Shown: piece after piece, positions 1 through 37,300 of the stretch
Layout of the letters: each line of letters starts with the position of its first letter
Numbering within the stretch: the first letter of the stretch is position 1
From: Sulfurospirillaceae bacterium
GTDB taxonomy: Bacteria > Campylobacterota > Campylobacteria > Campylobacterales > Sulfurospirillaceae
Direction: 5' to 3'
Length of the DNA: 43,293 nt
Assembly (NCBI GenBank): GCA_033723415.1
Contig: JAWVXD010000012.1
Span: 1-43,293 of the forward strand
Notes under the pieces: model-generated
The model's database searches: none
Told to the model about the DNA's origin: nothing
Seen by the model: only the letters and a program-made list of their open reading frames with translations
Made by a program: the position numbers and the translations under genes

Positions 1-128
1 ATATATCTATTATCTTCGACATCCCATATCTCAGAATTTTTCGCATGTTTAACAAAAACTGGATATAGATTCCCCTGTCCTCTCGCAAACACTTTTGTTT
101 TACGCTTCTGCAGCTCTTGATTTCTCAT
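1..128 (-). CDS. gabT: 4-aminobutyrate aminotransferase (GabT/PuuE-type), 5' part only; gene runs off the window
   Basis: Not in the ORF track. Manual translation from ATG at 128 (RBS AAGGGG upstream) gives MRNQELQKRKTKVFARGQGNLYPVFVKHAKNSEIWDVEDNRY, matching the GabT N-terminal pattern (ARG...YP.FV..A.N.E.WDVE..RY). Confidence 0.8.
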   Translation of the reverse strand, partial: MRNQELQKRKTKVFARGQGNLYPVFVKHAKNSEIWDVEDNRY

Positions 129-161
129 TATCTTCCCCTTTTAATCATTCAAATATATAAA

Positions 162-1343
162 CTAACTATTATTGATTTCAAACAAGGCTGCTACACCTTG
201 TCCTCCACCGACACACATGCTGACAACAGCATACTTAACGCCTCTTCTTTTACCTTCGATCAATGCATGACCACTCATCCTAGCGCCGCTCATACCATAG
301 GGGTGTCCAATAGAAATAGATCCTCCGTTTACATTAAGACGATCATCACTGATACCTAATGTATTTTTACAATATAAAAGTTGTGAAGCAAACGCTTCAT
401 TGATTTCCCACAAGCCTATATCCTCAACCGTCAAATTGAATCTTTTTAGCAGCTTGGGAATGGCGACTACGGGACCGATACCCATCTCTTCTGGTTCACA
501 TCCTGCGACACTCATCCCTAGATAAGTTCCTAAGGGTATCAAGTTTCTTTTAATTGCTTCTTTTTCTTCCATAATGACACATGAGGACGAACCATCAGAG
601 AGCTGACTGGCATTTCCTGCTGTGATACTTGTATGAGCCCCTAAAACCGGAGTTAAATTTGACAAAGTAGTAAAAGTCGTTTCTTTTCTATTGCATTCAT
701 CTTTAACAATAGTCACTTCTTTTTGTGTCACTTCTCCACTATACTTGTCTTTAACATTCATAATGGCAGTAACAGGGATTATTTCACTGTCAAAATATCC
801 TTTTTCTTGAGCTTGAAAAGTCCTCTGTTGGCTTTGCAATGCGTATTTATCCTGTTCCTCTCTTGTAACGTTGTATCTAGAAGCTACAAGTTCAGCCGTT
901 TGAAGCATCGGCATATAATATTCACTTTTAACCAGGGCATCTTCATAATTAGATGCATTCCATGTTTCATTTTGTACCAAAGAACAGCTTTCTACGCCAC
1001 CGGCTAAGACAATATCATATCCTTCATTTACAACTTGATTGGCTGCTATTGCTATAGCATTTAGTCCTGATGCGCACTGTCTATCAACCGTAGAAGCAGC
1101 GACACTAACCGGTATATTTGCTGCCATTGCTGCATGTCTTGCTACGTTTACTCCTGCACTCCCTTGTGTCAATGCACATCCAATAGTAATATCTTCTATT
1201 TCACTTGCATCAATTTTTGCTCTTTTTATTGCTTCATTCATTGAAAATGCCATCAAACTTGGTACTGTTAAATTATTGTAACTTCCTCTGTATGCTTTTG
1301 CGATCGGCGTACGGGCAGTTGATACGATTACTGCTTTACGCAT
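162..1343 (-). CDS. Acetyl-CoA C-acyltransferase (thiolase)
   Basis: Thiolase motifs: RQCASG (catalytic Cys), NEAFA, GHPYG, CVGGG. Start moved to ATG 1343, 6 nt after AAGGAG; overlaps the upstream gene's stop. Confidence 0.93.
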   Translation of the reverse strand: MRKAVIVSTARTPIAKAYRGSYNNLTVPSLMAFSMNEAIKRAKIDASEIEDITIGCALTQGSAGVNVARHAAMAANIPVSVAASTVDRQCASGLNAIAIAANQVVNEGYDIVLAGGVESCSLVQNETWNASNYEDALVKSEYYMPMLQTAELVASRYNVTREEQDKYALQSQQRTFQAQEKGYFDSEIIPVTAIMNVKDKYSGEVTQKEVTIVKDECNRKETTFTTLSNLTPVLGAHTSITAGNASQLSDGSSSCVIMEEKEAIKRNLIPLGTYLGMSVAGCEPEEMGIGPVVAIPKLLKRFNLTVEDIGLWEINEAFASQLLYCKNTLGISDDRLNVNGGSISIGHPYGMSGARMSGHALIEGKRRGVKYAVVSMCVGGGQGVAALFEINNS

Positions 1344-2646
1344 TATCATCTCCTTGAATTTTTTCCAATTGACACCATTTAGCTATAAATAATGCCGTGA
1401 TCTGAGTGATTCTTCTAACGGATTCTAAATTTACACATTCATTAAACCCGTGAATTGATCTTGCTTCCGGACCAAAAACTAAAGTCGGGGTACTGTCATA
1501 TAATCCAAAAAATCTCGCGTCTGTAGTCGCTGTAATAGATATTTTCTCTAACTCATTCTTATTTACAATTTGATTTGCATATTCTAGTGTTTGGATTGCT
1601 AATTTTGAGTTATCAGAAGTATCATCTGCTAAAGAGTATCCTTCCGCTAAAAAGCCATTATAAGTGATCGTCGGCTCATTTTTTTTCAAAAATGCATTAT
1701 TCTGAGAAGCATTTTTTAATGTTAGTTCAATATCTTCTTTTGCACTATTAATATCCTGTCCTGGATAAATTGCAATTCTTACGTCAAAAGTAGTCCATGC
1801 CGGAACCGAACTAGCCCAATCACCTCCTGCGATTTTTCCTATATTTAATTTTAACGGGTTATGTATATGTTCATAATGACAATTTTTATCTTTAGGAGCG
1901 TTCCAGCGTTTTTCCATCTCTTTAAGTGCAGTAATAAGCGGGATCACCGCTTCTATAGCATTTTCTCCATTTTCTGCTTCATATACATGTGCCGGTAATC
2001 CTTTTAAATGTACTTGAAACCAAATTACACCGATTTGCGAGGTTACTAATTTTTCTGCAAATGGTTCAGGGATGAGTGCAGCATCTGCGTGATAACCTCT
2101 TTGTAAACATGCTAATGCACCATTTCCCGTACATTCTTCTTCTACGACACTTTGAAAATATACGTTTGCAGCGGGCATATAACCTAATGATCTTAGTGCA
2201 TCTAATGCAAATAGATTACTGACTATTCCTGCTTTCATATCGCCGACACCTCTACCGTACATCCAATCATCTTTTATATACGGCTCGAAAGGAGGTCTGT
2301 CCCACATCTCTAAAGGGCCAGTTGGAACTACATCTATATGTCCATTTAAGATTAAAGATTTGCCTCGATTTGTTTTACTTTTATGCGTTGCAACAACATT
2401 TAATGCATCCTCATAATTATCTAAAACCGGTGAGAATCCATCTAAGTGAGAGATATCATCTACATCAATATTCCACATATCTACATCAAACTTTCTATTT
2501 TCTAACTCTTTTGCCATAAAGTTTTGTGCATCTTGTTCATTACCTCTAGTAGAGGGGAAAGAACTTAATTTAGATAAAAAATCTATTTCTTTAGAAAAAA
2601 GATTGTCAACAGCCTCTAAGATGAGTTTTTCTTGATTTTTATCCAT
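1336..2646 (-). CDS. M20 (ArgE/DapE/YodQ-like) metallo-deacylase
   Basis: Motifs NGHIDVVP, GRGVGDMKAG, VEEE, TDARF and C-terminal IHGFNE. Confidence 0.9.
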   Translation of the reverse strand: MDKNQEKLILEAVDNLFSKEIDFLSKLSSFPSTRGNEQDAQNFMAKELENRKFDVDMWNIDVDDISHLDGFSPVLDNYEDALNVVATHKSKTNRGKSLILNGHIDVVPTGPLEMWDRPPFEPYIKDDWMYGRGVGDMKAGIVSNLFALDALRSLGYMPAANVYFQSVVEEECTGNGALACLQRGYHADAALIPEPFAEKLVTSQIGVIWFQVHLKGLPAHVYEAENGENAIEAVIPLITALKEMEKRWNAPKDKNCHYEHIHNPLKLNIGKIAGGDWASSVPAWTTFDVRIAIYPGQDINSAKEDIELTLKNASQNNAFLKKNEPTITYNGFLAEGYSLADDTSDNSKLAIQTLEYANQIVNKNELEKISITATTDARFFGLYDSTPTLVFGPEARSIHGFNECVNLESVRRITQITALFIAKWCQLEKIQGDDNA

Positions 2647-2658
2647 AATGATTCCTAA

Positions 2659-3318
2659 TTAAAAAGTTTTAATGTCATGATCTTGACAAATTATTTTGGC
2701 ATCTGTAGCATTTATGACATCACTTATACTTACTTCTTCAGCTATCTCGATTAGATGTAATTCTTCATCAATAATATCCAATACGGCCATATCTGTATAA
2801 ATTCTATTTACACATTTTTTAGCCGTCAACGGCAAGGTACATTTTTCCATTATCTTAGGACGACCTTTTTTGTCTAGATGAGTACTTATAATATGTACTT
2901 TACAAGCTTTTTGAGCAAGTTCAATTGCACCGCCTGCTCCAGGAGTAAATGAACCTGAGATCATCCAGTTTGCTAAATCACCATTGGCTGCAACTTGAAA
3001 AGCACCTAATATCGTCAAGTCCAATCTACCGCTTCTAACAATTGAAAAAGATACCGAACTGTCAAAATATGCAGCTCCTAATATTGGACGGATATATGTC
3101 CCTCCGGCATCAATCAGATTGCGATCTGCATCTTCAAAATCTACTTGTCCGCCAACACCTGAGATTCCATTTTCCGAGTGTAGACATACTGGGAAATCTT
3201 TTTCAAGATACTTAGTGATTTTTGTAGGATAACCCATACCTAAATTAACAATTTGATTCTTTTTGATGTCCATAGCTGCTCTTTTGAGCATTCTTTCTTT
3301 AGCGTTTAAATACATCAT
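2659..3318 (-). CDS. 3-oxoacid CoA-transferase subunit B
   Basis: VNLGMGYP, catalytic SENG motif, GAFQV..NGDLANW, GGAIEL. Confidence 0.92.
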   Translation of the reverse strand: MMYLNAKERMLKRAAMDIKKNQIVNLGMGYPTKITKYLEKDFPVCLHSENGISGVGGQVDFEDADRNLIDAGGTYIRPILGAAYFDSSVSFSIVRSGRLDLTILGAFQVAANGDLANWMISGSFTPGAGGAIELAQKACKVHIISTHLDKKGRPKIMEKCTLPLTAKKCVNRIYTDMAVLDIIDEELHLIEIAEEVSISDVINATDAKIICQDHDIKTF

Positions 3319-3991
3319 AATCCTTTGTCAATTTTTCTAGATAAACTATTTTATCTACAAACGGACCCGGGGTATGAACTTCATTTGGATCTAATTCGCC
3401 TAATTCTTTTATCTCTTCACTTTCAACTATACAAGTTTTGGTAGCCATTGCCATGAGTGGGTTAAAATTACGCGAACTTTTTTCATAAATCAGATTTCCA
3501 AAAGTGTCACTTACAGCGGCATGTATAAAAGCAAAGTCAGCTTTTAATGCCGGTTCAAATAAATACTCAGTTTCATTGATATTGACTTTTATTTTATTTT
3601 CTGCAAGTTTTGTATCTATCCCAATATCAGTAACGATGCCCATAAGACCGGCACCTGCAGCTCTTATTCTCTCGGCTAAGATACCTTGAGGAACAAATTC
3701 TACAGTTATCTTCTTCTCATTCATCATTTCTATGGCATTAGAATTTAATCCTATATGGCTTGTTATTAATTTTTTAACCTGACCGTTTTGTAACAATAAG
3801 TCAATTCCTTGACCATTTTCATTGGCATCGTTTTTTATTATCGTTAATTCTTTTGCTCCGTTTTTTACTAATTCATCAATCAAACAAAAAGGTGTCCCCG
3901 GAATCCCAAAACCACCGATAAAGATACTTGAACCATCCGTAATACTGCTTATTGCATCTTTTATATTTGTAGTTTTATTTTGTAAAGTCAT
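3299..3991 (-). CDS. 3-oxoacid CoA-transferase subunit A
   Basis: GGFG..G.P, PQG.LAERIRA.GAG, RNFNPLMA, VHTPG; overlaps subunit B. Confidence 0.92.
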   Translation of the reverse strand: MTLQNKTTNIKDAISSITDGSSIFIGGFGIPGTPFCLIDELVKNGAKELTIIKNDANENGQGIDLLLQNGQVKKLITSHIGLNSNAIEMMNEKKITVEFVPQGILAERIRAAGAGLMGIVTDIGIDTKLAENKIKVNINETEYLFEPALKADFAFIHAAVSDTFGNLIYEKSSRNFNPLMAMATKTCIVESEEIKELGELDPNEVHTPGPFVDKIVYLEKLTKDYDVFKR

Positions 3992-5340
3992 TGTTTATTT
4001 ACTAACAGATTGAATTTTATTGCGAAAGCATCTAGGCTCTCTTTTAATATCGAAATTATTTCAGATATTTGTGTTTCATTTATTATCAAAGGAGGACATA
4101 TTAAAAAATGATCTCCTTCATTACCACCACGTGTACGCCTAGAATAAATGATCAAACCTCTCTCATATGCCAGATCAACCAGCACGTTATAAGCGTTTAA
4201 TTCTTTCGGCAATACTTCCATCGTTTCTCTGTTCGATACAAGTTCAAAAGCTAAAAGCAAACCTTTCCCTCGTACATCACCTATAAATGGATATACGTCC
4301 ATCAGTTTTGTCAATTCTTGTTTTAATATATCACCCATGTTTTTTGCATTATTAACAAGATCTTCTTTTTGGATTTCTCTTAAAACCGCTAAACCTGCTG
4401 AACAAGCCAATGGATTACCTGCATATGTAAATCCATGTAAAAAACCACCTGAATTTAAAACTGCTTCTACTATATTTTCTTTAGCGACCATCGCTCCAAG
4501 CGGTGCATATCCTGCAGCAAAGCCTTTTGATAAGGCAACAATATCAGGTATGATACCCCAATGTTCAGAGGCAAGGAATGCTCCGGTTCTTCCGGCTCCC
4601 GTCATGACTTCATCATAAATCAATAATATGCCAAACTCATCACAGATTTCTCTTATCCTTTTATAATAGCTATCTGGTGCGACTAAAGCTCCTGTTGTAG
4701 CTCCTCCAACCGGTTCCATAATAAATGCTAAAACTGTATCTGCTCCTTGTTTAATTATCTCATCTTTTAACAAATTCGCATATTTTATACCTCTTTGTTC
4801 ATCACTCAAATCATCATGATCCAAATAACATGTAGGTGCAGCAATTTTCGGCATACTATTCATCATCGGTTCAAACGGTTTTGTAAGCGGATCATATCCC
4901 GTGATAGCTAAAGCACCTAATGAACAGCCATGATAAGAAGGGAATCTAGAAATAACTTTCCACTTTTTTGTTTCATTATTGATAAGAGCATATTGTCTTG
5001 CTAATTTTATGCAGCTTTCAACAGCTTCCGAACCGCCTGAAACAAAAAAAACTCTGTTTAATCCTTCCGGCATTAATTGTGCCGTTAATCTAGCAAGTTC
5101 TTCAGCAGGTTCATTTTGGAAATGCAAACGATAAGCAAAGGTTGCCTTTTGCATTTGTTCATTCATAGCTTTTAATACATTTTCATTTGAATGCCCGATA
5201 TTTGATACCATGGCACCGCTGCATCCATCAATATATCTTTTACCGTTTACGTCATATAAATAGATACCTTTTGCATAATCCAACATAGGTCGTGATGAAT
5301 TTGATTGGTAAAATAAATTTGATTCGCTATCTTGATTCAT
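3988..5340 (-). CDS. Class III PLP aminotransferase (YodT-like)
   Basis: [31 protein letters not shown] (PLP lysine), HGFTYAGNP. Confidence 0.92.
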
Positions 5341-6115
5341 TATTTGCCTTTCGTAAATTTAGATGTTTAGATAAGAAATTTTTTGTTCTGTCATGTTTTG
5401 GAGAGTGAAAAATAATGCTTGGCGGTCCTTCTTCAACTACCAACCCCTGATCCATAAATAATACTTTATCACAGACATCTTCCGCAAAGGCCATTTCATG
5501 TGTCACAATGATCATTGTCATATGTTCTTTTGCAAGTTTTTTCATGACAAGGTTGACTTCATCTACCAATTCAGGATCCAATGCAGATGTCGCTTCATCA
5601 AAAAGCATCACTTTAGGCTGCATTGCGAGCGCTCTTGCTATCGCGACTCTTTGTTTTTGTCCTCCTGAGAGTTGAGAAGGATAATAATCTATCTTATCTA
5701 TCAATCCAACTTTTTCAAGCTCTTTTACTGCAAGTTCTTTTGCTTCTTTATCTGATATACCTTTTAACATCTTAGGTGCCAAAGTTATATTTTCACAAAC
5801 TGTCAGATGAGGAAATAAATTAAAATGTTGAAATACCATTCCAATATCTTGGCGTACCTTGTCTATATGTTTTTCATACTCTTTGGGAGGTAAAGTTTTG
5901 TTTATTTGTACATCTTCTAGCCAAATTTCACCTCCTGTTAAAGGAGATAAGTTGTTTATAGCTCGCAAAAGAGTACTCTTGCCTGAACCGCTAGGTCCAA
6001 TTATCGCAACTATTTGTCCTTTTTCTACGTCTATACTAATATCTTTTAAAACTTCCAAGTCACCAAAATTTTTCTTTGCATGACGAATACTGATAAATGC
6101 TTCTTTATTTAACAT
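5327..6115 (-). CDS. Polar amino-acid ABC transporter ATP-binding subunit
   Basis: Walker [28 protein letters not shown]. Start set at ATG 6115 after GGAG. Confidence 0.93.
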
Positions 6116-6132
6116 ATCTTTCTCCACTCTTT

Positions 6133-6789
6133 TTATTTTGCAATCTGTACATTTCGTTCAACTTTTCTTAATACCTTTTCCATAAATAAGTTAATAATAT
6201 AGTAACAAACAGCAGCAACAATATAAAATTCAAAAGGTCTGTAAGTCTCGCTTATTGCTAATTGTGACATATGAATCAACTCAGCAACTCCAATAACAGA
6301 AACTAAAGCCGAATCTTTCAACAAAGCGATAACGTTATTGCCGATTGGCGGTACTACTCTTCTAATTGCCTGTGGTAATATTACTTTTCTTATAGATTGA
6401 AATTTACTTAAGCCTAAACTTCTTGCACCTTCATCCTGACCTTTGTCAATTGTTACGATTGCTGTTTGAATTAACTCAGAATTATAAACTGCGTAAAATA
6501 GACCTAAACCAATAACTCCAGCTACAAATGCCGGTAAATCAATACCAATGTGAATCAAACCAAAATATATAAGAAATAATTGTAACAGCAGAGGCGTTCC
6601 CATAAATATCCAAGCAAAAAATTTAATCGGATATCTAAAAAACCAATGAGCATAAAGTTCAATCATGGCAAAGAATATTCCGCCAAGTATACTTATGACA
6701 GTTGCCACAAGTGTGATTGCAATTGTCCATAATGCACCGATTAAAATCGTATTCATATATGCCGGAACAACACTAAAATCAAGACCCAT
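6133..6789 (-). CDS. Polar amino-acid ABC transporter permease
   Basis: [11 protein letters not shown]-like loop (DEGARSLG), LKDSAL; hydrophobic. Confidence 0.92.
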
Positions 6790-6810
6790 AATTTTTTCCT
6801 TTTACTTTAT

Positions 6811-7458
6811 TCATTGTATTTGCACTTTTCTATCTAGAAAATCAATTAATTTACCTACTGCAGATATCAATATAATATAAATAACACCGGCGAGGAGAAA
6901 CATCTCAAATGGTTTATACGTTGATCCAATAAAACGTTGGGCTGTATAAGTCAATTCAACGACAGATATCGTAGAAACTAATGCCGTTGCTTTTATTTGT
7001 GCGTTGATATTTACACCTAACGGTCTAATCATAAGGCGGGCAGCTTGTGGCAATACAACTTTCATCATGGTTTGAGTTTTATTTAAACCCAAAGTTCTTG
7101 CTGCTTCAATTTGACCTTTATCAATCGAGATTATTGCTCCTCGAATTGTTTCCGTCATGTAAGCACCTATATTAATTCCAAGTCCTATAATACCTGCTTC
7201 AAGTGCATTCAATTGAATGCCGACTTGTGGACCTCCAAAATATATAATAAACAACTGTAATAAGGCAGGTGTTCCTCTTATGACGCTTACATATACATTC
7301 CCAATAATTCTAAAGTATCTTTTAGTTGATAATTTTGCAAATGCTCCAAAAGCCCCACAAATTAAACCTAAGAGTATAGTTGACACTGAAAGTTCAATCG
7401 TGACTACCGTTGCTTTTAAAAAGTAAGGATATACCTTTAGCATTAAATCTATATCCAT
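6811..7458 (-). CDS. Polar amino-acid ABC transporter permease
   Basis: RGTPALLQL, GQIEAARTLG. Confidence 0.92.
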   Translation of the reverse strand: MDIDLMLKVYPYFLKATVVTIELSVSTILLGLICGAFGAFAKLSTKRYFRIIGNVYVSVIRGTPALLQLFIIYFGGPQVGIQLNALEAGIIGLGINIGAYMTETIRGAIISIDKGQIEAARTLGLNKTQTMMKVVLPQAARLMIRPLGVNINAQIKATALVSTISVVELTYTAQRFIGSTYKPFEMFLLAGVIYIILISAVGKLIDFLDRKVQIQ

Positions 7459-7539
7459 TTAAACTCCTAATCTATATAATTTATGCAAGTAGAGGCACCA
7501 TAATTCTTATCATCATATTTTAATATCAATAGCATTTTT

Positions 7540-7830
7540 AATTGTGGAAAGTGAAATTCTTAAAAGAGATGTTGTTACATCTGTTACGGTAGTAGTTGAT
7601 TATTGCAGTATGCACCAACTATCGTATCTATTTCCCAATCCCCGATTTTGCCTTTGTCAGTCACTTGTCTTATCCCAATATGATATGGACTCTCTATCTT
7701 TAATCTTCTTCTGCTCGAATGAGCATTCTTCTCTCTTTGGTAACTCTACTTACAGAATTTTCATTGTAATTTTTCTTCTGAGTACTGCTATCACTTTTGC
7801 AATCTCATTTTCGTATCCAAATTTTCGTTA
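7540..7830 (-). pseudogene. Decayed IS30-family transposase fragment (boundaries approximate)
   Basis: Minus strand near 7610-7665 reads QVTDKGKIGDWEIDTIVGA, the IS30 GDWE.DT..G motif. It is preceded in another frame by KIKDRESIS (cf. IPNRVSI). Frameshifts and stops are present; no intact ORF. Confidence 0.7.
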
Positions 7831-7858
7831 AACTTGGAGCATGGAACTTTTTCTATAT

Positions 7859-7934
7859 GGTTAAATGTTAAAAAACCTTTTAACTCCCTTTATATCCTAC
7901 ACTTATAAAGGGAATATGTTTTTAACATTTAACC
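7859..7934 (-). other. Nested inverted repeat / long stem-loop immediately 3' of the substrate-binding protein gene
   Basis: GGTTAAATGTTAAAAA (7859-7874) pairs with TTTTTAACATTTAACC (7919-7934); inner TCCCTTTATA (7885-7894) pairs with TATAAAGGGA (7904-7913). Confidence 0.7.
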
Positions 7935-7948
7935 TCTTAAAATTTGAA

Positions 7949-8734
7949 TTAGCGAATATCCGCACCGATCCATTTTTTAGCTATTTTTGTATATGTGCCA
8001 TCTTTTTGCATTCCTTCTAAAGCTTTTTGCATAGCTTCTCTCAATTTATCATTACCTTTTCTAATCGCAATACCTGCACTATCAGAAGTTCCTGATAAAC
8101 TTGGAACATTTAATTCAGTTACTTTTACGCCGTTTTTCTTAATTGCAACCAGCACCGGGATATCATCACTTACAAATGCATCAATTCTTCCGGTATCTAA
8201 TTCCATTAATAACTCTGGCAAACCTTTATATGTTTTAATATCCCAAGAGGCATGAGTTCTTGCCCATTTTTCATGTGTCTCCCCTAAAACAACACCTACT
8301 GTGTGACCTTTAAGATCTTTTAGACTTGAAATATTTGAACCTTTCTTTACAAAGACTGCGCTATGCATCCTATAATACGGTCCAACAAAATCAACAACCT
8401 TTTTTCTCTTATCAGTTATAGACATAGATCCGACAATCGCATCGTATTTGTTCGCTAATAATCCGGCGATTATACCGTCCCAAGCAGTAGTTATGATTTC
8501 TACTTTCATTCCTAATCTTTTTGCAATTTCTCTTCCTATTGCAGGATCAAAGCCAACGACTTTATTTTGTTCATTTACAAAATTAAAAGGAGGATATGCT
8601 CCACTCATTGCTATTTTCATAACACCGCTTTTTTGTAACGTGGCTAATTCATCCGCTGAAACTGTGCTACTAGTTGCAATCAATAAAAAACTTATTAAAG
8701 CAATAAGCGTACTAATTTTTTTTACAAAACTCAT
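7949..8734 (-). CDS. Polar amino-acid ABC transporter substrate-binding protein (family 3)
   Basis: Signal peptide; YPPFNF, GFD, WDGIIAGL..KYD, SMSIT..R motifs. Confidence 0.93.
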   Translation of the reverse strand: MSFVKKISTLIALISFLLIATSSTVSADELATLQKSGVMKIAMSGAYPPFNFVNEQNKVVGFDPAIGREIAKRLGMKVEIITTAWDGIIAGLLANKYDAIVGSMSITDKRKKVVDFVGPYYRMHSAVFVKKGSNISSLKDLKGHTVGVVLGETHEKWARTHASWDIKTYKGLPELLMELDTGRIDAFVSDDIPVLVAIKKNGVKVTELNVPSLSGTSDSAGIAIRKGNDKLREAMQKALEGMQKDGTYTKIAKKWIGADIR

Positions 8735-8758
8735 TTTGTTCCTTTTTAGTTTGGTTCA

Positions 8759-8860
8759 TTAATTATATTTTATATATAATTAAGATAGTTAAAGAATTAT
8801 TGAATAACTTAATAATTCTCACCTCATAGGAAGATCAATATATTTAATATAATTAAATAT
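8759..8860. promoter_or_regulatory. Candidate operator palindromes in the divergent promoter region
   Basis: TTAATTATAT-N5-ATATAATTAA (8759-8783) and ATATTTAAT-N3-ATTAAATAT (8840-8860). The very AT-rich context lowers significance. Confidence 0.35.
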
Positions 8861-9164
8861 CTTTACTCTGATTAAATCATACTGTATACTTTTTCTAAAA
8901 GCAAGATAACTTTGCATTATTTTTAATCAATCAACTCATGACTGCTACTTTTTGCTACATTTAGACGAAAATGGCGATATATTTATTTATAAATGTCTGG
9001 GAAAAGTTTGAAAATGTGTGTAATTTATTCAACAATGGAATATAAATTATTATGTATTTTTTAAATATAAAAAATTTTCAAAGGCAAATCTGTATCTACA
9101 ATCTTTAAAAATTGTGGCATAATACGGCATTTAAGATATAAATACTAACAAATATAGGACAAGC

Positions 9165-9719
9165 ATGAATATAGGGGAAAAAATAAATACATTAAGACTG
9201 AAAAAAAAGTTGAGTACAAAAGATCTAGCCAAAAAAGCAGGTATATCTGCTGGAATGTTGTCTTTACTGGAAAAAGGATCAACTCAAGGTTCAGTTGAAA
9301 CATTGAGAAAAGTTGCAAAAGTTTTAGATATTACATTATCATATTTATTTGAAGAAGAAGACCAAGAACTAATCGGTGTTGATCATGAGTCTTTTCACAT
9401 TGTTAGAAAAGATAATAGAAAAAAGATTTTCTTTGCCAATCCTGCATATACGTGTGAATTATTAACTCCTGATTTAAAAGGTGAAATTGAATTTGTATTG
9501 GTAGAGTTAGGTCCGGAACACATACCTGATGAAATATTTCCACCTTGTAAAAGTGGTGAAGAGTGTAATTTGGTTTTGCAGGGGGAAATAGAAGTTCAAT
9601 TAGATGACAAGACATATACCCTTTATGAAGGAGATTGTATCAGATTTAATCCAAAAATACCACATAAAATCAATAACAGAAGGAAAAAGAAAGCTTTATA
9701 TATAAGTGCAAGATTATAA
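9165..9719 (+). CDS. XRE-family HTH + cupin transcriptional regulator (PuuR/SutR-like)
   Basis: N-terminal HTH (LAKKAGISAGMLSLLEKG) and C-terminal cupin (GEE...VLQG.I...L.EGD.I.F....PH); divergent from the catabolic operon. Confidence 0.9.
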   Translation: MNIGEKINTLRLKKKLSTKDLAKKAGISAGMLSLLEKGSTQGSVETLRKVAKVLDITLSYLFEEEDQELIGVDHESFHIVRKDNRKKIFFANPAYTCELLTPDLKGEIEFVLVELGPEHIPDEIFPPCKSGEECNLVLQGEIEVQLDDKTYTLYEGDCIRFNPKIPHKINNRRKKKALYISARL

Positions 9720-9788: not shown

Positions 9789-9865
9789 TGGTGTCCCGGA
9801 CAGGATTCGAACCTGAGACCTCTCGATTAGGAATCGAGTGCTCTATCCAGCTGAGCTACCGGGAC
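9789..9865 (-). tRNA. tRNA-Arg (CCT)
   Basis: Reverse complement GTCCCGG...CTCGA-TT-CCT-AA-TCGAG...GGTTCGAATCC...CCGGGACACCA; cloverleaf with encoded CCA. Confidence 0.96.
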
Positions 9866-29831: not shown

Positions 29832-30959
29832 ATGAAAAGAGCATGGTTAAAATTAGCTGCCTCTGTGGTAGCTTGTACAGCACTAGTTGCATCAGCAAAT
29901 GCTGCTGATGTTATAAAGATAGGTGTTCAAGCACCTATTACCGGTAAATATGCCAACGAAGGACAAAGTATAGATAACGGTGTAAAGTTGATCGTTGACC
30001 AATACAATGCAAAAGGCGGAGTTTTGGGCAAGAAGATCGAAGTTATCAGCTGTGATGATGAGGGGATGGCTCAAAAAGCTGCAATTTGTGCAAGAAAACT
30101 AGTCAATGCCGGTGTATTAGCCGTTATAGGTTCATATACTTCAAGTGCTACTGAAGCGGCACAAACAACATACTATAGAAATAAAGTACTACAAACAAGT
30201 GACGGTACAAGTGATTCTTTGACAAAACACAAATACTGGACATTTTTTAGAAACTCATTTCCAAATAGTGCAGAAGCAGATTTTACGGCTAAATACTTAG
30301 TACAACACAAACACTATAAAAAAATCGTAGTCTTGTCTGATTATTCAAGCTATGCTACAGGACTTGCAGATGCAACTGCAAAATCAATCAAAGCAGTAAA
30401 TGGAAACATTGTTTACAGAGGAAAAATCAAATCTGGAACTCAAAACTTTACAGCTGTTTTAACAAAAATCAAATCTATGAATCCAGATGTAATCTACTTC
30501 AGTGGTTATTATAATGACGGTGGACTTTTAAGAGCACAACAAATACAACTTGGCATAAAAGCTGATTTTGTTGGCGGTGACTCAAATGACAATCCAGACT
30601 TTATTAAACTTGCAGGAGACAGCGCAAAAGGAACTTACTTGATCAATGTACCGACTCCTGATATTCTTCCATATGATATTGCAAAGAAATTCTTGAGTGA
30701 TTACAAAGCAAAATACGGAATAGCTCCGGCTTCTATATGGACACTACTAAATATAGACGGATTAAGAGCAATCCTTCATGCAGCGACTGAAACAAAAAGT
30801 ACTGACAGCAAAACAATCTCTAACTATCTTCATAATTTGAAAAACTTCCCTGGAATCACAGGACCTGTGACTTTCAGAAATGACGGTGAGAGAATCGGCG
30901 GTGGATATATGGCTTACGAAATCAAAGGTGACGGTAGTTACAAAATAGTATATAAATAG
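29832..30959 (+). CDS. Liv/HAAT-family ABC transporter substrate-binding protein
   Basis: Signal peptide; IKIG..APITG, N.KGGVLGKKIE...DD, GSYTSS, FPGITG.VTF. Confidence 0.93.
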   Translation: MKRAWLKLAASVVACTALVASANAADVIKIGVQAPITGKYANEGQSIDNGVKLIVDQYNAKGGVLGKKIEVISCDDEGMAQKAAICARKLVNAGVLAVIGSYTSSATEAAQTTYYRNKVLQTSDGTSDSLTKHKYWTFFRNSFPNSAEADFTAKYLVQHKHYKKIVVLSDYSSYATGLADATAKSIKAVNGNIVYRGKIKSGTQNFTAVLTKIKSMNPDVIYFSGYYNDGGLLRAQQIQLGIKADFVGGDSNDNPDFIKLAGDSAKGTYLINVPTPDILPYDIAKKFLSDYKAKYGIAPASIWTLLNIDGLRAILHAATETKSTDSKTISNYLHNLKNFPGITGPVTFRNDGERIGGGYMAYEIKGDGSYKIVYK

Positions 30960-30970
30960 AAAGAGAAACA

Positions 30971-31873
30971 ATGGATATATTTCTACAGCAACTTATCAAC
31001 GGTTTGACGGTAGGAAGTTTATATGCATTGGTTGCATTGGGTTACACGATGGTTTATGGAGTAATGAAGTTGATCAACTTCGCTCACGGGGACCTCGTGG
31101 CCCTCTCTGCCTTTGCCGGACTTACAATCTACACACAAATCTTTGGTGAAGGAAAAGCATCAATATTTCTTGTATTGAGTGTTTTTGTCATCACTGCATT
31201 ACTAATTGCAGTAGTCGGTGTTCTTCTTGAACGCCTCGCATACAGGCCTTTAAGAACTGCACCGAGACTTAGTGCGGTTGTTTCGGCATTGGGAGCAGGT
31301 TTAGTTATACAAAATTCAATTATGTTGATCTGGGGACCAAATATGAAAATATTTCCTTCAGATCTATTTCCATCAACAATATGGCAGATACACGGTGTCG
31401 TTTTCACGTTTACACAAGCGATGATCTTAGGAGTTTCTGCTGTTTTATTACTAGGTTTGTATTTTTTCATCAATAAAACAAAAATGGGAACCGCAATTCG
31501 TGCAACTGCAATAGACCAAGATGCAGCAAAGCTAATGGGTATAAATGTAAATAGAGTCATCATGATCATATTTATCATCGGCTCAGCACTGGGAGCGGTT
31601 GCCGGTTTATTTATAGGTATAAACTACAGAGGCATCACATTTGACATGGGTTGGATGTATGGTCTAAATGCTTTTATCGCTGCTATAATGGGGGGAATCG
31701 GAAATATCCCTGGAGCAATGCTTGGGGGTCTGTTACTTGGATTGTTTAACGCCATGATCAGTGGTTATATATCAAGTGCTTGGGCTGAGACATTTACCTT
31801 TATCTTGCTGGTTGTTATTTTAATATTTAGACCAACAGGAATTTTAGGCGAAGTAGTGGCGGAGAAAGTATGA
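30971..31873 (+). CDS. livH: Liv-type ABC transporter permease (LivH-like)
   Basis: QQLINGL..GS.YAL.ALGYTMVYG..KLINFAHG. Confidence 0.9.
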   Translation: MDIFLQQLINGLTVGSLYALVALGYTMVYGVMKLINFAHGDLVALSAFAGLTIYTQIFGEGKASIFLVLSVFVITALLIAVVGVLLERLAYRPLRTAPRLSAVVSALGAGLVIQNSIMLIWGPNMKIFPSDLFPSTIWQIHGVVFTFTQAMILGVSAVLLLGLYFFINKTKMGTAIRATAIDQDAAKLMGINVNRVIMIIFIIGSALGAVAGLFIGINYRGITFDMGWMYGLNAFIAAIMGGIGNIPGAMLGGLLLGLFNAMISGYISSAWAETFTFILLVVILIFRPTGILGEVVAEKV

Positions 31874-32829
31874 TGAAAAACATGAATAAAACAAATCTTA
31901 TAGCTATAGGATTTTTGATCATTATGGGATTTTTACCGCTTGTTGCTAATTCTGCTTGGCTTGCGGTAGGAACAACTTTCTTAGTTTTTGGTGTGGTCGC
32001 ATTTTCTCAAGATATAATACTAGGTCGAGCTGGAGCATTTCAAATGGGTCATGCTATGTTTTTTGGGCTTGGTGCATATACTACGGCAATATTAAATGTC
32101 CATTTTGGTTGGCCGATTTTGGCTACCTGGATACCGGCTGTCATTATTCCTGTCATCATAGCGATTTTACTTGCAGGTCCAATTATCCACTTAAGAGGTG
32201 ATTATCTTCTTGTTGCTACCATCGGATTTAATATCATCTTTATACAAGTATTGCAAAATGATGTTTTTGGATTAACAGGTGGACCAAATGGAATATTCGG
32301 TATAGATGTTGCAAGACTTTTTGGATTTGAATTTTCAAGTCAAATTGCGATGTATTATATGTCATTTATCCTCTTAGGTATTACATTATTCATCATGAGA
32401 AATCTTGATACTAGTAAATTTGGTCGTGCAATGTTTTATATAAACAAAGATGATGTCGCAGCACAAAGTATGGGCATAAATGTAAGATACTATAAACTGT
32501 ACGCTTTTGCTCTCGGTTCGGGCATCGCCGGAGCTGCAGGGAGTATGTTTGCAGTTCAATACTCAGCAGTTTCACCTGAAGCATTTAACGTTATCCAATC
32601 TATCATGTTCTTTACGATCGTCCTTGTTGGAGGTTCTGCCTCACTTCCTGGAGTTCTTATAGGAACATTTGTAATGTTTGTATTACCTGAAATTTTTAGA
32701 GAATTTCAAACTGCAAGATACTTAGTATTTGGAATAGCAATGGTCTTAACTATGATACTCCGACCAAGAGGTATCTGGCCGGTGCGCTTTGGAAATATTC
32801 CAAACTTCCTTAAAAAGGATGTCAAATGA
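31870..32829 (+). CDS. livM: Liv-type ABC transporter permease (LivM-like)
   Basis: GHA.FFGLGAY, LRGDYL..ATIGF, LTGGPNG, RPRGI. Confidence 0.9.
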   Translation: MMKNMNKTNLIAIGFLIIMGFLPLVANSAWLAVGTTFLVFGVVAFSQDIILGRAGAFQMGHAMFFGLGAYTTAILNVHFGWPILATWIPAVIIPVIIAILLAGPIIHLRGDYLLVATIGFNIIFIQVLQNDVFGLTGGPNGIFGIDVARLFGFEFSSQIAMYYMSFILLGITLFIMRNLDTSKFGRAMFYINKDDVAAQSMGINVRYYKLYAFALGSGIAGAAGSMFAVQYSAVSPEAFNVIQSIMFFTIVLVGGSASLPGVLIGTFVMFVLPEIFREFQTARYLVFGIAMVLTMILRPRGIWPVRFGNIPNFLKKDVK

Positions 32830-33605
32830 GTGATTACTTGCTAGAGATAAAAGACGTATCAAAACTTTTTAGTGGCCTTGTTGCTATAGATTCCCTCTCT
32901 ATGAAAGTCAAAGAGGGCCAAATATACGGGATCATAGGACCAAACGGTGCAGGGAAAACAACCCTGTTCAACTGTATCACAGGTATATATACACCTGAAC
33001 ATGGCGATATTTTGTTTGAAGGTAAAAGCATCAAAGGAATAGCTCCTTACAAAATAGCCGAACACGGAATTCTTCGAACTTTTCAGACAATCAGGTTGTT
33101 TTCTGAGATGAGTGTCGCTGAAAATATCATGTCTGGTCGACATATAAAATCAAATCAAAGATGGTATAACGGTATCATTCACACACCTGCTATGAAAAGA
33201 GATGAACACGAACAATGGGAAAAAGTCGGTGAATTGATGGACTTTTTCAAACTCAGTAAATATGCCACTACTCCGGCAGGCGATCTATCTTATGGAGTTC
33301 AACGAAAGATAGAGATGGCAAGAGCTCTGGCTGCAGAACCAAAACTTCTGATATTGGATGAACCTGCTGCAGGTTTAAATGACAATGAAACTATGGAACT
33401 TGCAGCAACAATCAGAGAAATACAGGCCAAAGGCGTGACCGTTTTGATGATCGAACATCATATGGAAATGGTTATGAGCTTATGTGAGTACATTACGGTC
33501 ATAAACTTCGGAGCAAAGATCAGTGAAGGAGTTCCAACTGTTGTACAAAATGACCCTGTAGTGGTTGAAGCATATGTCGGAAGCGATGATGAGGATGAGT
33601 CATGA
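32826..33605 (+). CDS. livG: Liv-type ABC transporter ATPase (LivG-like)
   Basis: GPNGAGKTT, RTFQ, LSYG.QR, LDEPAAG, EHHM. Confidence 0.92.
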   Translation: MSDYLLEIKDVSKLFSGLVAIDSLSMKVKEGQIYGIIGPNGAGKTTLFNCITGIYTPEHGDILFEGKSIKGIAPYKIAEHGILRTFQTIRLFSEMSVAENIMSGRHIKSNQRWYNGIIHTPAMKRDEHEQWEKVGELMDFFKLSKYATTPAGDLSYGVQRKIEMARALAAEPKLLILDEPAAGLNDNETMELAATIREIQAKGVTVLMIEHHMEMVMSLCEYITVINFGAKISEGVPTVVQNDPVVVEAYVGSDDEDES

Positions 33606-34324
33606 GTAAAAATGAACTATTATTAGAAATCAAAGATCTACATGTTAGTTATGGTGCTATCAAAGCGTTAAAAGGTATTGACCTGTATGTAAACAAAGGT
33701 GAAGTCGTTACGATCCTTGGTGCAAATGGTGCAGGGAAGACTACAACGCTTCGCACAATCAGTGGCTTATTAAAGTCAAATGAGGGACAGATAGTATTTG
33801 ATGGTAAGGATATAACAAAAACTAAAGCTCATGATATAGTTGCACTTGGTATGAGTCACTCACCTGAGGGGAGAAGAGTATTTGGAACACTAAGTGTTGA
33901 AGAAAATCTTTTGATGGGAGCATATACGCTCAAAAAATTCGACCCAAAAACATTGGATTGGATCTATAGTATTTTGCCGCGTTTAAAAGAGAGAAAAAAA
34001 CAACTAGCAGGGACATTGAGCGGTGGTGAGCAGCAAATGCTCGCAATCGGACGTGCTATTATGAGTAATCCAAAATTACTGATATTGGATGAGCCAAGCC
34101 TCGGACTTGCTCCTGTTTTGGTAAAAGTCATTTTTAAAGCAGTACGAGAGATAAGCAATGCCGGGGTAACTGTTCTTTTGGTAGAACAAAATGCCAAAGC
34201 AGCTCTAAAACTGGCAGATCGTGGATATGTGTTAGAGCTTGGTAAGATTTCGTATGAAGGAAGTAGTGAAGAGTTACTAAATTCAGAGACGATTCAAGAA
34301 GCATACTTAGGTAAGAAAAAATAG
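33602..34324 (+). CDS. livF: Liv-type ABC transporter ATPase (LivF-like)
   Basis: GANGAGKTT, PEGRRVF, LSGGEQQM, LDEPSLGLAP. Confidence 0.92.
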   Translation: MSKNELLLEIKDLHVSYGAIKALKGIDLYVNKGEVVTILGANGAGKTTTLRTISGLLKSNEGQIVFDGKDITKTKAHDIVALGMSHSPEGRRVFGTLSVEENLLMGAYTLKKFDPKTLDWIYSILPRLKERKKQLAGTLSGGEQQMLAIGRAIMSNPKLLILDEPSLGLAPVLVKVIFKAVREISNAGVTVLLVEQNAKAALKLADRGYVLELGKISYEGSSEELLNSETIQEAYLGKKK

Positions 34325-34343: not shown

Positions 34344-37300
34344 ATGTTGGAAAATAAGGCGGTTATAGAAAAAGCCATCAAATTGGCTGAAGTGTGGCAA
34401 ACAAGAGCTGATGAGTTAGTTAGTGATTTTGACAAAAAATTTCATATCAAGATGAACAAAATGCTTAGCCATCCAAAAGATAAAGTTATGCTCATTGAGC
34501 TCATGGATCAAAGTTTTAGAAGTAAGAACAATAAAAGAGTAGCAAACCAAATAGAATACCTTTTTACAAAATACGGTATGGCATCTTTTTTTACATCAGG
34601 TGAAAGATTTCTAATATTTTTATTTTTAAATTTAGGTGTTTATCTACCTGATATTTCGATACCTCTTTTTATAAACAATATCAGAGAAGATACAAAAACA
34701 GTAGTCATCAAAGGTGAAGACGACATACTCAATGCACATTTACAAAAAAGAAAGAGCGAAGGCACAAGAGTAAATATAAATCTTATAGGCGAAGTCGTAC
34801 TTGGAGAAGAAGAAGCAAAAGGAAGGATGGAAAAATATCTCAACCTTTTATCTAATCCAAATGTGGACTATATCTCTATAAAAATATCTACTCTATTTTC
34901 ACAGATAAACCCTGTTTCTTTTGAGCACACTGTTGAAGAATTGGTAAAACGTTTAAGCAAAATATTTGCTCAAGCGAAAAAATTCAGTTTCAAGAACAGT
35001 AAGGGAAAGATGGAAAATAAATTTATAAATCTTGATATGGAAGAATACAGGGATCTGTCTTTGACATATATGGCTTTTACTAAAACTTTGAGTCAACCTG
35101 AATTTAAAGATTTTAAGGCTGGCATCGTTCTTCAAGCGTATTTACCTGATTCACATCTTTGGCAGCAAAAACTGATAGAGTTTGCAAAAGAGAGAGTAGA
35201 AAACGGCGGAGCACCACTTAAAATGCGTTTGGTTAAAGGTGCAAATATGGAGATGGAAGAGACTGAAGCCTCGCTTCGCGGTTGGGAATGTACTCCATAT
35301 GACAAGAAAATAGATACTGACAGCAATTTCAAGATAATGGCTGAGTATGGTATGAGAAAAGAACATATCAAATACCTTCACCTAGGAACAGCATCTCACA
35401 ATCTATTTGAACAAGCGTATGCCTATGAACTTGCAAAAGAGTATGATTCATTAGAATATTATACGATGGAGATGCTGGAGGGGATGAGTGAGTCTGCAAG
35501 ACTTGCCATAAAAGAGATCAGCACAGATATCATCCTTTATGCTCCTGCTGCAAAAAAAGAACAATTTACGAATGCAATAGCGTATCTTGTAAGAAGATTA
35601 GATGAAAATACAGGAAAAGAAAACTTCATCAGATACTCTTTTGGGTTAAAAGTCGGATCAGCTGATTGGGAAATGCTCAAAAAAGCATTTGTAGATTCAT
35701 TTGCAAATACAAATAATCTATTTATCGGTTCAAAAAGAAAACAAAGCAGACTAAAAGAAAATTGGGATAATTTTAAAAATAGCAGTTATGAGACAAATAA
35801 ATTTGTCAACGAACCGGATACTGATTTTATTCTAAATGACAACAAACAGTGGGCAAAAGACATAAGAGAAAAATGGATGTTTTCAAAAGATACAAAACAT
35901 ACCGTTATACCTGTAGTTGTCGGTGGAGCAGAACTTACAAAAGATAGAAACACTCAAATAGCTATAGATAAATCACAGTTGAAAGACAATGTAGTAGCCG
36001 GTGAATTTGCACTAGCAGACGCTGATGACTTAAAAGAAGCAGTAAAAGTCGCAAAAGCTGATGTTGACGGCTGGAGAGCTTTGAGTCATGAGCAAAGACA
36101 TAAAATTCTCTGTGATGTCGCAAATATAGTCAGGAAGAGAAGAGGAGACCTTATCGGAGTTGCCGCAGCAGAAGTCGGCAAGGTTTTTACTGAAACAGAT
36201 GTTGAAGTAAGTGAAGCAATAGACTTTTTAGAATTTTACCCTCATTCAAGCAGATTTTTTGAAGCTTATGAAAATTTAAAATTCAAAGGAAAAGGTGTCG
36301 GTGTTGTAACACCACCTTGGAATTTTCCTATAGCTATACCGCTAGGAGGAGTCGCTGCAACTTTAGCTGCAGGAAACTGTGCTATCATAAAACCGGCAAG
36401 CGCCGCAGCTATGTGTGCTTATGAGCTTTGTAAATGTTTCTGGGATGCCGGTGTGAGTAAAAATACTCTCCAATACGTTCCATGTCCGGGCTCACTTGCA
36501 GGTGAGCATCTGATCAAAAATAAAGATGTAGATTTTGTCATACTTACAGGTGGTGAAGACACCGCTTATAAGATGCTTGAATCTAGACCTAACCTTTTCT
36601 TGGCAGCAGAAACCGGTGGAAAAGATGCCACTATAGTCACCGCTATGAGTGACCGTGAACAAGCTATAAAAAATGTAGTTCATTCAGCATTTTCAAATAG
36701 CGGTCAAAAATGTTCTGCAACATCACTTTTGGTATTGGAAGAAGAAGTTTACAATGACGAAGGCTTCAAAGCTGCTTTGGTAGACGCAGCAAAAAGTATG
36801 GAAACAGGGTCTGTTTGGAACTTTGTAAACAGGATCGGAACTTTGGCAAATAAAGCAAGCGGCAATCTTGAGAAAGCATTGAACTCCTTACAAGAAGGTG
36901 AATCATGGGCACTAAAACCTGAGTTTGTAGACGGCAATGAATATATGCTAAAACCGGCTATTCGCTGGGGTGTAAAAGATGGAAACTTCTGTCACATGAA
37001 TGAGCTTTTCGGACCTGTTTTATCTGTAATGAAAGCGAAAAATCTAGCAGATGCAGTCCATATAGTAAACAAAACAGGTTATGGATTGACTTCCGGAATA
37101 GAATCACTTGATGCAAGAGAGGTTGAATACTGGAGAGAGAACATAAAAGCCGGTAACCTTTACATCAACAGAGGAACAACCGGAGCTATAGTTCTCAGAC
37201 AACCTTTTGGCGGTATGGGTAAATCAGCGATAGGAGCAGGAAGAAAAGTCGGAATATACAACTATATAACTCAGTTTGTTGATTTTGAAGAGACCGGACT

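Follow-up and report, generated by a model that had tools for sequence, protein, structure and literature searches.

The 43,293-nt stretch of DNA analysed here (the window), which forms the start of contig C12 in the genome of a Sulfurospirillaceae bacterium (G000), begins with a gene cassette for an ABC importer, a class III aminotransferase (AT), a two-subunit coenzyme A (CoA)-transferase, an M20 deacylase and a thiolase, followed by the start of gabT. The cassette is real, intact, horizontally acquired and catabolic. Based on the genes that accompany its orthologues, it very probably serves a pathway in which an N-acylated beta-amino acid is turned into a 3-oxoacid, cleaved and deacylated. 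We estimate a probability of roughly 0.55 that the substrate is Nepsilon-acetyl-beta-lysine, catabolised to 4-aminobutyrate (GABA). The cassette is apparently a variant of a biochemically known, seemingly gene-less pathway.

The genes for the binding protein, two permeases, ATPase, AT, CoA-transferase subunits A and B, M20 deacylase and thiolase and the start of gabT run co-directionally on the minus strand, and a gene for an XRE-cupin regulator is divergent from them, 430 nt from the binding-protein gene (Table 1). From permease 1 to gabT the intergenic gaps are 21, 5, −14, −4, −20, 12, −14 and 33 nt. The original prediction had described such an overlapping run, and every gene that it named is present in the family assigned to it, with the regulator divergent; gabT, which it included in the run, is represented inside the window by its first 42 codons only. 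All nine cassette open reading frames (ORFs) are full length. Active-site residues are intact in the AT (Lys272, Asp243), the M20 protein (the metal ligands His103, Asp105, Asp136 and His399, with an EEECTG motif at 169), the thiolase (Cys92, His349, Cys379) and CoA-transferase subunit B (Glu49). The closest structures are 3I4J for the AT and 3PFO for the M20 protein, and the thiolase is 68% identical to that of one orthologous cassette (L045; L plus a number denotes a retrieved locus record). The gene order is not due to chance, because among the 80 best genome loci the orthologous AT adjoins a CoA-transferase gene in 49 and an M20 gene in 47, mostly with the order of the window.

For 183 loci with an orthologous AT, we counted the partner genes lying no more than 7 kb from it. 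These loci are the best 80 of 262 from genomes, the best 80 of 201 from metagenomes, 20 drawn from an even sample of Alphaproteobacteria and 3 from Gammaproteobacteria. Three further loci with ATs at 52–54% identity, which contain none of these partners, were left out. The tally is descriptive rather than statistical: the loci are kin, some are duplicated, and many metagenome contigs are short. A CoA-transferase is found in 49/80 genome, 32/80 metagenome, 4/20 even-sample and 0/3 gammaproteobacterial loci, and a BKACE (PF05853) in 19/80, 15/80, 15/20 and 3/3, respectively. One or the other is present in 68/80 genome and 19/20 even-sample loci, and the two occur together in none of the 183. BKACE loci and CoA-transferase loci interleave within one AT clade. 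Given this interleaving and the use of free 3-oxoacids by BKACEs, the AT most simply yields a free 3-oxoacid. A strict mutual exclusion of all modules does not hold, as a BKACE occurs with a more distant M20 gene in L233, L252 and L255, and M20 and HDAC-family genes occur together in L233.

The nature of the 3-oxoacid can be narrowed from the BKACE partners. All five that were tested score above the cut-off of NF053538, the 3,5-dioxohexanoate subfamily. In S1 Table of PMC4922564, activity on 3,5-dioxohexanoate marks BKACE group G1, and the data available from that paper have G1 enzymes cleaving 6-acetamido-3-oxohexanoate (14 detections) but not KAH, 3-oxoglutarate or 3-oxoadipate. Because the partner BKACEs pass NF053538, whose G1 group spared anionic 3-oxoacids, the 3-oxoacid is likely to be uncharged. 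Beta-glutamate and 3-aminoadipate are disfavoured as substrates: the partner BKACE subfamily did not cleave anionic 3-oxoacids, and the deacylase would be superfluous. An M20, HDAC-family or DMFase-like protein accompanies the AT in 70/80 genome and 18/20 even-sample loci, which argues that an amide is hydrolysed; the HDAC-family partner (37.1 kDa) is closest to acetylpolyamine amidohydrolases. A GNAT closest to thialysine/diamine N-acetyltransferases, found in 24/80 genome, 28/80 metagenome, 6/20 even-sample and 0/3 gammaproteobacterial loci, is the sole partner of the AT in several, and its type points to an acyl group on the terminal amine.

The window begins inside gabT, and the continuation of this gene was traced beyond it. 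C12 shares its first 141 nt exactly with the end of contig C8, and the rest of gabT is a collapsed two-copy repeat that is missing from the assembly. The full-length relative in G013, a complete genome of the same genus, is 79% identical over the 42 residues and scores 578 bits on TIGR00700 (cut-off 507; scores below are likewise given as bits/cut-off); the full-length GabT orthologues of G013 and G010 both exceed that cut-off. The resident locus in G013 holds two-component genes, gabT, a TRAP transporter, a universal stress protein, an aldehyde dehydrogenase and prpD, and in G000 it is spread over C8, C15 and C1. An aldehyde dehydrogenase near gabT is found in G010 as well as in G013, and the 3' end of the dehydrogenase gene also lies at the end of C13. 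Across these genomes the resident gabT locus (C15 in G000, L194:5250-11487 in G013, L195:9650-18002 in G010) comes with a TRAP or ABC importer.

One sequencing run, a tidal-flat metagenome, contains the whole stretch; it may be the source of this DNA and is thus not independent. No RNA run was listed as containing the stretch. Runs X2–X4 contain only 5–7% of the stretch's words, and no habitat was inferred from them. When the source-like run is compared with C15, the gabT and dehydrogenase contigs reach depths of 161 and 153, respectively, and unique sequence a depth of 76. A further contig, 105 nt long and with a depth of 86, connects the end of gabT directly to the start of the dehydrogenase gene. 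Run X4 contains two gabT–dehydrogenase joins. The double depth and the joins therefore establish two gabT–dehydrogenase loci in G000. By elimination, the window continues into a direct gabT–dehydrogenase pair and then into C13; the reverse pairing is possible, with the dehydrogenase after gabT either way.

The original prediction had asked whether gabD, and not kamA or yodP, follows gabT beyond the window. An aldehyde dehydrogenase does follow and kamA and yodP are absent there, but the enzyme belongs to a subfamily other than canonical GabD: its orthologues score 291–305/646 on TIGR01780, the succinate-semialdehyde dehydrogenase model, and best on NF040648, lactaldehyde dehydrogenase (453–459/650). 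We regard this gabT-linked, lactaldehyde-dehydrogenase-like enzyme as a candidate non-GabD succinate-semialdehyde dehydrogenase. The second gabT copy begins 33 nt after the thiolase gene. Its placement there is a local graft, because gabT is patchy among relatives of the host (3/40) and occurs in none of the 183 cassette loci, which also makes this locus the only one among those compared with a link to a GABA exit.

In the proposed route, the ABC system would import Nepsilon-acetyl-beta-lysine and the AT would remove its 3-amino group to give 6-acetamido-3-oxohexanoate. The CoA-transferase would activate this 3-oxoacid, and the thiolase would cut the product into acetyl-CoA and 4-acetamidobutyryl-CoA, whose CoA the transferase would recycle by passing it to the next 3-oxoacid. 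The M20 deacylase would release acetate and GABA, and the duplicated GabT and the aldehyde dehydrogenase, presumably co-transcribed with the cassette and possibly under control of the XRE-cupin regulator, would lead from GABA to succinate, all without any oxygen-requiring step. An acetyl group would prevent cyclisation of the 3-oxo-6-amino acid, so a copy without a GNAT should need the ready-acetylated compound. Free beta-lysine, offered by the original prediction as a second substrate, is unlikely here because this copy has no acetyltransferase. The module swaps, the GNAT partner, the dehydrogenase after gabT and the absence of kamA and yodP independently back the chemistry of that prediction, from transamination and CoA activation through thiolysis and deacetylation to the GABA exit. 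Descent from the yod operon, free beta-lysine and canonical gabD are not supported. The choice of substrate is also supported by the AT–CoA-transferase A–CoA-transferase B–M20 run of Bacillus subtilis and Brevibacillus, which adjoins ablB.

Several observations weigh against this reading. Neither cleavage module is present in 12/80 genome, 33/80 metagenome (21 of these shorter than 10 kb), 1/20 even-sample and 0/3 gammaproteobacterial loci; in L065 and L082 the AT is closely followed by an aldehyde dehydrogenase gene instead of a cleavage module, and several loci consist of GNAT and AT only. In the accessible data of PMC4922564, the G1 BKACEs are promiscuous enzymes for which activity was more frequent with hydrophobic substrates, and groups G3, G4 and G5 cleave the acetamido compound too. 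Since gabT, kamA and yodP each lie within 7 kb of the AT in 0/183 loci, the links to GABA and to beta-lysine each depend on few loci; kamA is likewise absent from the three cassette-bearing genomes that were searched whole. The simple scheme leaves creatininase-family (38/80), DMFase-like (4/20) and DauA-like (9/20) partners without a role. The dehydrogenase downstream of gabT scores 305/646 on the succinate-semialdehyde dehydrogenase model and best on lactaldehyde dehydrogenase, the window proteins have closer relatives than YodT, YodR and YodQ, and an IS30 remnant may impair expression.

In another scheme, deacylation would come first. The imported beta-amino acid would carry a block on its 3-amino or its carboxyl group (as an N-acyl compound, amide, lactam or dipeptide) and be freed by M20, HDAC, DMFase-like or creatininase-family enzymes, then converted by the AT to a 3-oxoacid and cleaved to a simple acyl-CoA, with gabT a neighbour by insertion. 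The position of the creatininase-family and DMFase-like genes, which lie within the importer gene set and upstream of the AT, fits this order, as do the hydrophobic preference of G1 BKACEs, an acyl-CoA dehydrogenase near the AT in 5 of 80 genome loci and the lack of gabT in all orthologue loci. We consider it unlikely, since it leaves unexplained the omega-amine acetyltransferase that alone accompanies the AT in several loci, the acetylpolyamine-type deacetylase and the second gabT–dehydrogenase copy 33 nt behind the thiolase. Alternatively, the same logic may apply to another diamino acid: a shorter or longer omega-acetamido-beta-amino acid (for example, acetylated 3,5-diaminopentanoate or 3,7-diaminoheptanoate) or a polyamine-derived analogue would lead to beta-alanine or 5-aminovalerate, which GabT-type enzymes can also take. 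All module swaps suit any beta,omega-diamino acid, PotD-like importers with a DauA-like oxidase occur in 9/20 even-sample loci, and the downstream dehydrogenase is not canonical GabD. However, the corresponding four-gene run in Bacillus adjoins ablB and kamA, and we know of no comparably common alternative diamino acid. Nepsilon-acetyl-beta-lysine, by contrast, is a documented and abundant natural member of the class, according to the accessible text of PMC1224877. Another diamino acid thus appears quite improbable.

The AT might also act as an omega-transaminase on polyamines or a basic amino acid; the CoA-transferase and thiolase would then handle another 3-oxoacid, unrelated or further downstream, for instance acetoacetate. 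Its best-characterised structural relatives do include putrescine and omega-transaminases, and L065 and L082 have the gene arrangement described above. Yet the cassette has no dehydrogenase able to form the 3-oxo group, a BKACE directly follows the AT in many loci, and a beta-transaminase occupies the AT slot on Rhizobium plasmids, so that we give this explanation hardly any weight. It is also very improbable that the cassette is decaying in this host. A 490-nt gap with the IS30 remnant separates the binding-protein gene from permease 1 and splits the importer genes, so the insertion could have severed the downstream genes from their promoter or deleted a needed gene, and a creatininase-family gene, found at that site in many cassettes, is absent from G000. 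But the nine ORFs are full length with intact active sites, 19 orthologous cassettes naturally have no creatininase-family gene, and the third-position G+C content of the genes (0.22–0.28) matches the host, which indicates that they are long-lasting. The corresponding gap is 56–183 nt in those 19 loci and 783–983 nt in 52 loci with the gene. No terminator-like site was found on the coding strand of the 490-nt gap, although the promoter/terminator scan as a whole was uninformative (13 sites versus 13.4 expected).

The binding protein has Ser44 where its solved relatives 4ZV1, 3VV5 and 5T0W have Glu or Asp; this site is Ser or Thr in 69/70 orthologues. We take the acidic counterpart of site 44 in solved LAO/ArtJ-type structures to recognise the basic side chain. 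Glu152, which is new relative to the solved relatives, is invariant (70/70). The protein falls below the cut-off of TIGR01096, the lysine/arginine/ornithine-binding family (197/256) and does not have the acidic residue for the side chain, and a profile search gave no family with a named ligand above its cut-off. Ser44 and Glu152 are compatible with, and no proof of, an uncharged side chain. In the AT, Tyr70-Arg71 is common to the window enzyme and YodT, and His-Thr stands at 70–71 in an RpiR-linked AT group.

By sequence comparison, the cassette is a marine alphaproteobacterial one that was acquired horizontally, and not a Bacillus yod operon. The host itself is Sulfurospirillaceae-like: relatives of its ribosomal protein S7 at 90% identity are named Sulfurospirillum, Sulfurospirillaceae or Campylobacterota, which agrees with the phylum of the original prediction. 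The ATs of the best 80 of 262 loci, mainly from marine Alphaproteobacteria, are 66–78% identical to the window AT, whose closest named clusters are proteins of Hyphomicrobiales and OCS116 metagenome-assembled genomes at 79–80%, and other clusters reach 85%. In a quick maximum-likelihood tree of 80 ATs (IQ-TREE), the window enzyme is nested among alphaproteobacterial cassette ATs (15 rows, support 99) inside an orthologue clade of 36 rows (support 99). The AT was found at E 1e-150 in 22 of 400 genomes of an even class-wide sample around Hoeflea, 19 of them at at least 62% identity, and in 3 of 399 scored genomes of a gammaproteobacterial class (67% identity). No sign of a native Campylobacterota pathway was found with these queries in the genomes sampled: the best AT match in 60 relatives of the host is at most 39% identical, and a search of 400 further genomes from the host phylum at E 1e-40 gave no match to the M20 protein. 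A tRNA-Arg(CCT) gene lies 70 nt from the start of the cassette; neither it nor the IS30 remnant is mentioned in the original prediction. In none of the four same-genus genomes readable at this point is the tRNA gene followed by the cassette, and the DNA that does follow varies among the four; in a fifth, the contig stops within the tRNA. Base composition gives no signal of recent transfer, as the third-position G+C content equals that of the host. The transfer is therefore old or came through a low-G+C donor, and the genes have long resided in a low-G+C genome.

With regard to regulation, 60 loci among the best 80 from genomes have a LysR cluster, and an XRE gene lies within 7 kb of the AT in 0/183; the relatives of the window regulator are generic XRE-cupin clusters in a protein cluster search. 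Elsewhere in G000 there is no match to TIGR03827 (ablB/yodP), to PF05853 or to the creatininase family, and no match at E 1e-3 to three cassette GNATs or YodP, other GNAT families having been outside this screen. One unlinked KamA-family radical SAM gene (C3:101258-102274) scores 271–272 bits against the AblA cut-off of 525 and best on glutamate 2,3-aminomutase (305/650), below every specific cut-off. The genome also has an ectoine-catabolism-like cluster (C1:175421-180427; L266:9422-14428) encoding a diaminobutyrate transaminase, an aldehyde dehydrogenase, a DoeA-like hydrolase (573/613 on DoeA) and a DoeB2 deacetylase (above its cut-off), which suggests that osmolyte scavenging is a habit of the host. 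Within the window, a 1198-aa ORF at 34344-37940, with an aldehyde dehydrogenase domain at 35982-37265, follows a run of ABC transporter genes (29832-34324); we take it to resemble PutA.

Table 1 Features of the cassette and its flanks in the window.
Feature	Coordinates	Strand	Basis
gabT (4-aminobutyrate transaminase), 5' end, 42 codons; one of two near-identical genome copies, runs past contig end	1..128	-	Best NCBIfam hits PRK08088/PRK07495, E 3e-7
Thiolase (acetyl-CoA C-acyltransferase)	162..1349	-	TIGR01930 above cut-off; best PRK07108 533/615
M20 ArgE/DapE-family deacylase; proposed 4-acetamidobutyrate (or CoA ester) deacetylase	1336..2646	-	PRK06837 596 bits (cut-off 376)
3-oxoacid CoA-transferase subunit B	2659..3318	-	TIGR02428 above cut-off; SENG motif including Glu49
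3-oxoacid CoA-transferase subunit A	3299..3991	-	TIGR02429 above cut-off
Class III aminotransferase; proposed beta-amino acid (N6-acetyl-beta-lysine) transaminase	3988..5340	-	PRK07483 456/485, PRK06917 453/535
Polar amino acid ABC transporter ATPase	5327..6127	-	62-80% identity to cassette ATPases
ABC permease 2	6133..6789	-	PF00528, TIGR01726
ABC permease 1	6811..7458	-	PF00528, TIGR01726
IS30-family transposase remnant, frameshifted, in the 490-nt gap	7587..7745	-	NF033563, E 1e-4
Perfect 16-nt inverted repeat, directly downstream of the binding-protein gene, before the IS30 remnant	7859..7934		
Periplasmic polar amino acid-binding protein (SBP_bac_3)	7949..8734	-	PF00497; TIGR01096 197/256
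XRE-cupin regulator, divergent; in place of the LysR of orthologous cassettes	9165..9719	+	PF01381 + PF07883
tRNA-Arg(CCT) after fusA; insertion hotspot	9789..9865	-	

Orthologous loci show further arrangements around the AT. A creatininase-family gene, possibly for a lactam hydrolase, lies between binding protein and permease in L014 (7022-7810) and 37 other genome loci; this partner may open a lactam side product. L243, L257, L258 and L260 have a gene for a DMFase-beta-like protein (PF20254) separating the importer from the AT; these loci contain a BKACE gene and neither an HDAC nor an M20 gene. A PotD-like importer, AT, BKACE, HDAC and D-arginine dehydrogenase (DauA)-like oxidase occur together in L244, L246, L247, L249, L261 and others, and this is the commonest form in the even sample. 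In L055, L095 and L098 the cassette is followed by a second M20 amidohydrolase gene and an alanine-racemase-like gene.

Nepsilon-acetyl-beta-lysine is a major osmolyte of many methanogens with little turnover in the producing cells, according to the accessible text of PMC1224877, and our literature search found no consumer of it or genes for its consumption; nor does the available text of PMC12361552 and PMC12776343 contain anything on catabolism. If the assignment is right, the cassette, whose AT is found in about 5 of every 100 sampled Alphaproteobacteria (19/400 at at least 62% identity), is a sink for this compound. Enzymes reportedly known for 45 years would gain sequences, and B. subtilis yodTSRQ would gain a testable function by analogy. 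We tentatively put forward a broader proposal, at somewhat less than even odds: the AT family would be the gene-less N6-acetyl-beta-lysine transaminase, the cassette a widespread bacterial sink with interchangeable cleavage-enzyme and thiolase forms, and the Campylobacterota version an oxygen-independent one restricted to the acetylated substrate, with its own duplicated gabT and a non-GabD dehydrogenase grafted on, giving a direct cross-feeding route from archaea to bacteria in coastal sediment. New here is that Campylobacterota, an unrelated phylum, has the thiolase form and that a GABA exit is grafted onto it. Purified proteins and marine strains in culture make each step open to experiment.

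Among known systems, the original prediction had singled out the B. subtilis run yodT-yodS-yodR-yodQ-ablB(yodP), with kamA behind it. The order of AT, CoA-transferase A, CoA-transferase B and M20 genes in this run and its Brevibacillus equivalent (L093, L109) is indeed that of the window, whereas descent is unsupported: identities to YodT, YodS, YodR and YodQ are 41, 46, 46 and 35%, and the window AT and M20 protein stay below the cut-offs of the YodT and YodQ equivalogs (453/535 on PRK06917 and 317/428 on PRK06915), which YodT (786) and YodQ (765) pass. Phylogenies, which the prediction had called for, place YodT apart from the window AT, whose clade has closer kin in other gene contexts, although YodT is on a long branch and its placement is unsure. 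Trees of the M20 and CoA-transferase B proteins agree that the Yod proteins are not sister (FastTree, 27 and 25 rows, thinly sampled and midpoint-rooted). We thus rejected orthology and regard the yod run as probably an analogue or distant cousin. The function of YodT is listed as unknown in the available part of PMC6522883. Unlike the yod operon, the window has no linked ablB or kamA and has an importer, thiolase and gabT in addition. These had been read as replacing the biosynthetic genes, but importer and thiolase came with the alphaproteobacterial cassette.

Two other groups share parts of the module. On two Rhizobium plasmids, orthologues of the CoA-transferase, M20, thiolase and GNAT genes stand beside an enzyme closest to the Mesorhizobium beta-transaminase (2YKU, E 1.7e-129), which acts on beta-aminocarboxylic acids according to the accessible part of PMC3149608. 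The family of 2YKU and the Variovorax-type beta-phenylalanine aminotransferase (4AO9) thus fills the AT slot of the same module, which argues that this slot is one of beta-transamination. The window AT belongs to a different class III subfamily (the PRK07483/PRK06917 neighbourhood), and its likeness to 2YKU is functional, through context. In L111 (Rhizobium bangladeshense plasmid NZ_CP071615.1, 6293-30403), and also in L107 and L112, the module lies among genes for ATP-grasp ligases, peptidases or CocE/NonD hydrolases and peptide importers, and a TIGR03822 aminomutase-like gene is 6.8 kb from the module in L111, a single case; such loci might both produce and consume a beta-amino-acid peptide. 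RpiR-AT-BKACE clusters (L050/L102, L196, L199, L201) combine a related PRK07483-like AT (40–46% identity), a BKACE and an importer. They differ in having a separate AT clade (27 rows, support 99), another BKACE subfamily and no deacylase annotated alongside in these four records, and this sister clade probably serves another beta-amino acid.

The closest counterpart of the window is the uncharacterised alphaproteobacterial cassette of Hoeflea, Leisingera, Roseibium, Celeribacter and others, with the order LysR / SBP-(creatininase)-permeases-ATPase-AT-(GNAT)-CoA-A-CoA-B-M20-(thiolase). The genes and their order are the same, at 54–80% identity per gene; unlike these cassettes, the window has an XRE-cupin gene for the divergent LysR, no creatininase-family gene, no GNAT, and the host gabT and dehydrogenase appended. 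Cultured carriers include Hoeflea alexandrii, Celeribacter and Cohaesibacter with the thiolase form and Shinella or Phyllobacterium with the BKACE form. A description of this cassette was not found in a literature search whose coverage excludes most subscription journals (the possibly relevant Bastard et al. 2014 among them). The closest counterpart in biochemistry is the aerobic L-beta-lysine pathway of Pseudomonas B4, reported by the Barker laboratory in about 1979–81, which is said to include an N6-acetyl-beta-lysine transaminase (EC 2.6.1.65), a 3-keto-6-acetamidohexanoate cleavage enzyme and a 4-acetamidobutyryl-CoA deacetylase (EC 3.5.1.51) with a subunit reportedly of about 36.5 kDa. 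BKACE-GNAT-HDAC variants of the AT cassette correspond gene for gene, in function, to this reported enzyme list. The window differs from B4 in having a CoA-transferase and thiolase for the cleavage enzyme, an M20 for the HDAC-family protein and no acetyltransferase, but the reported logic of B4 is also that of the window: protect, transaminate, cleave, deprotect and proceed to GABA.

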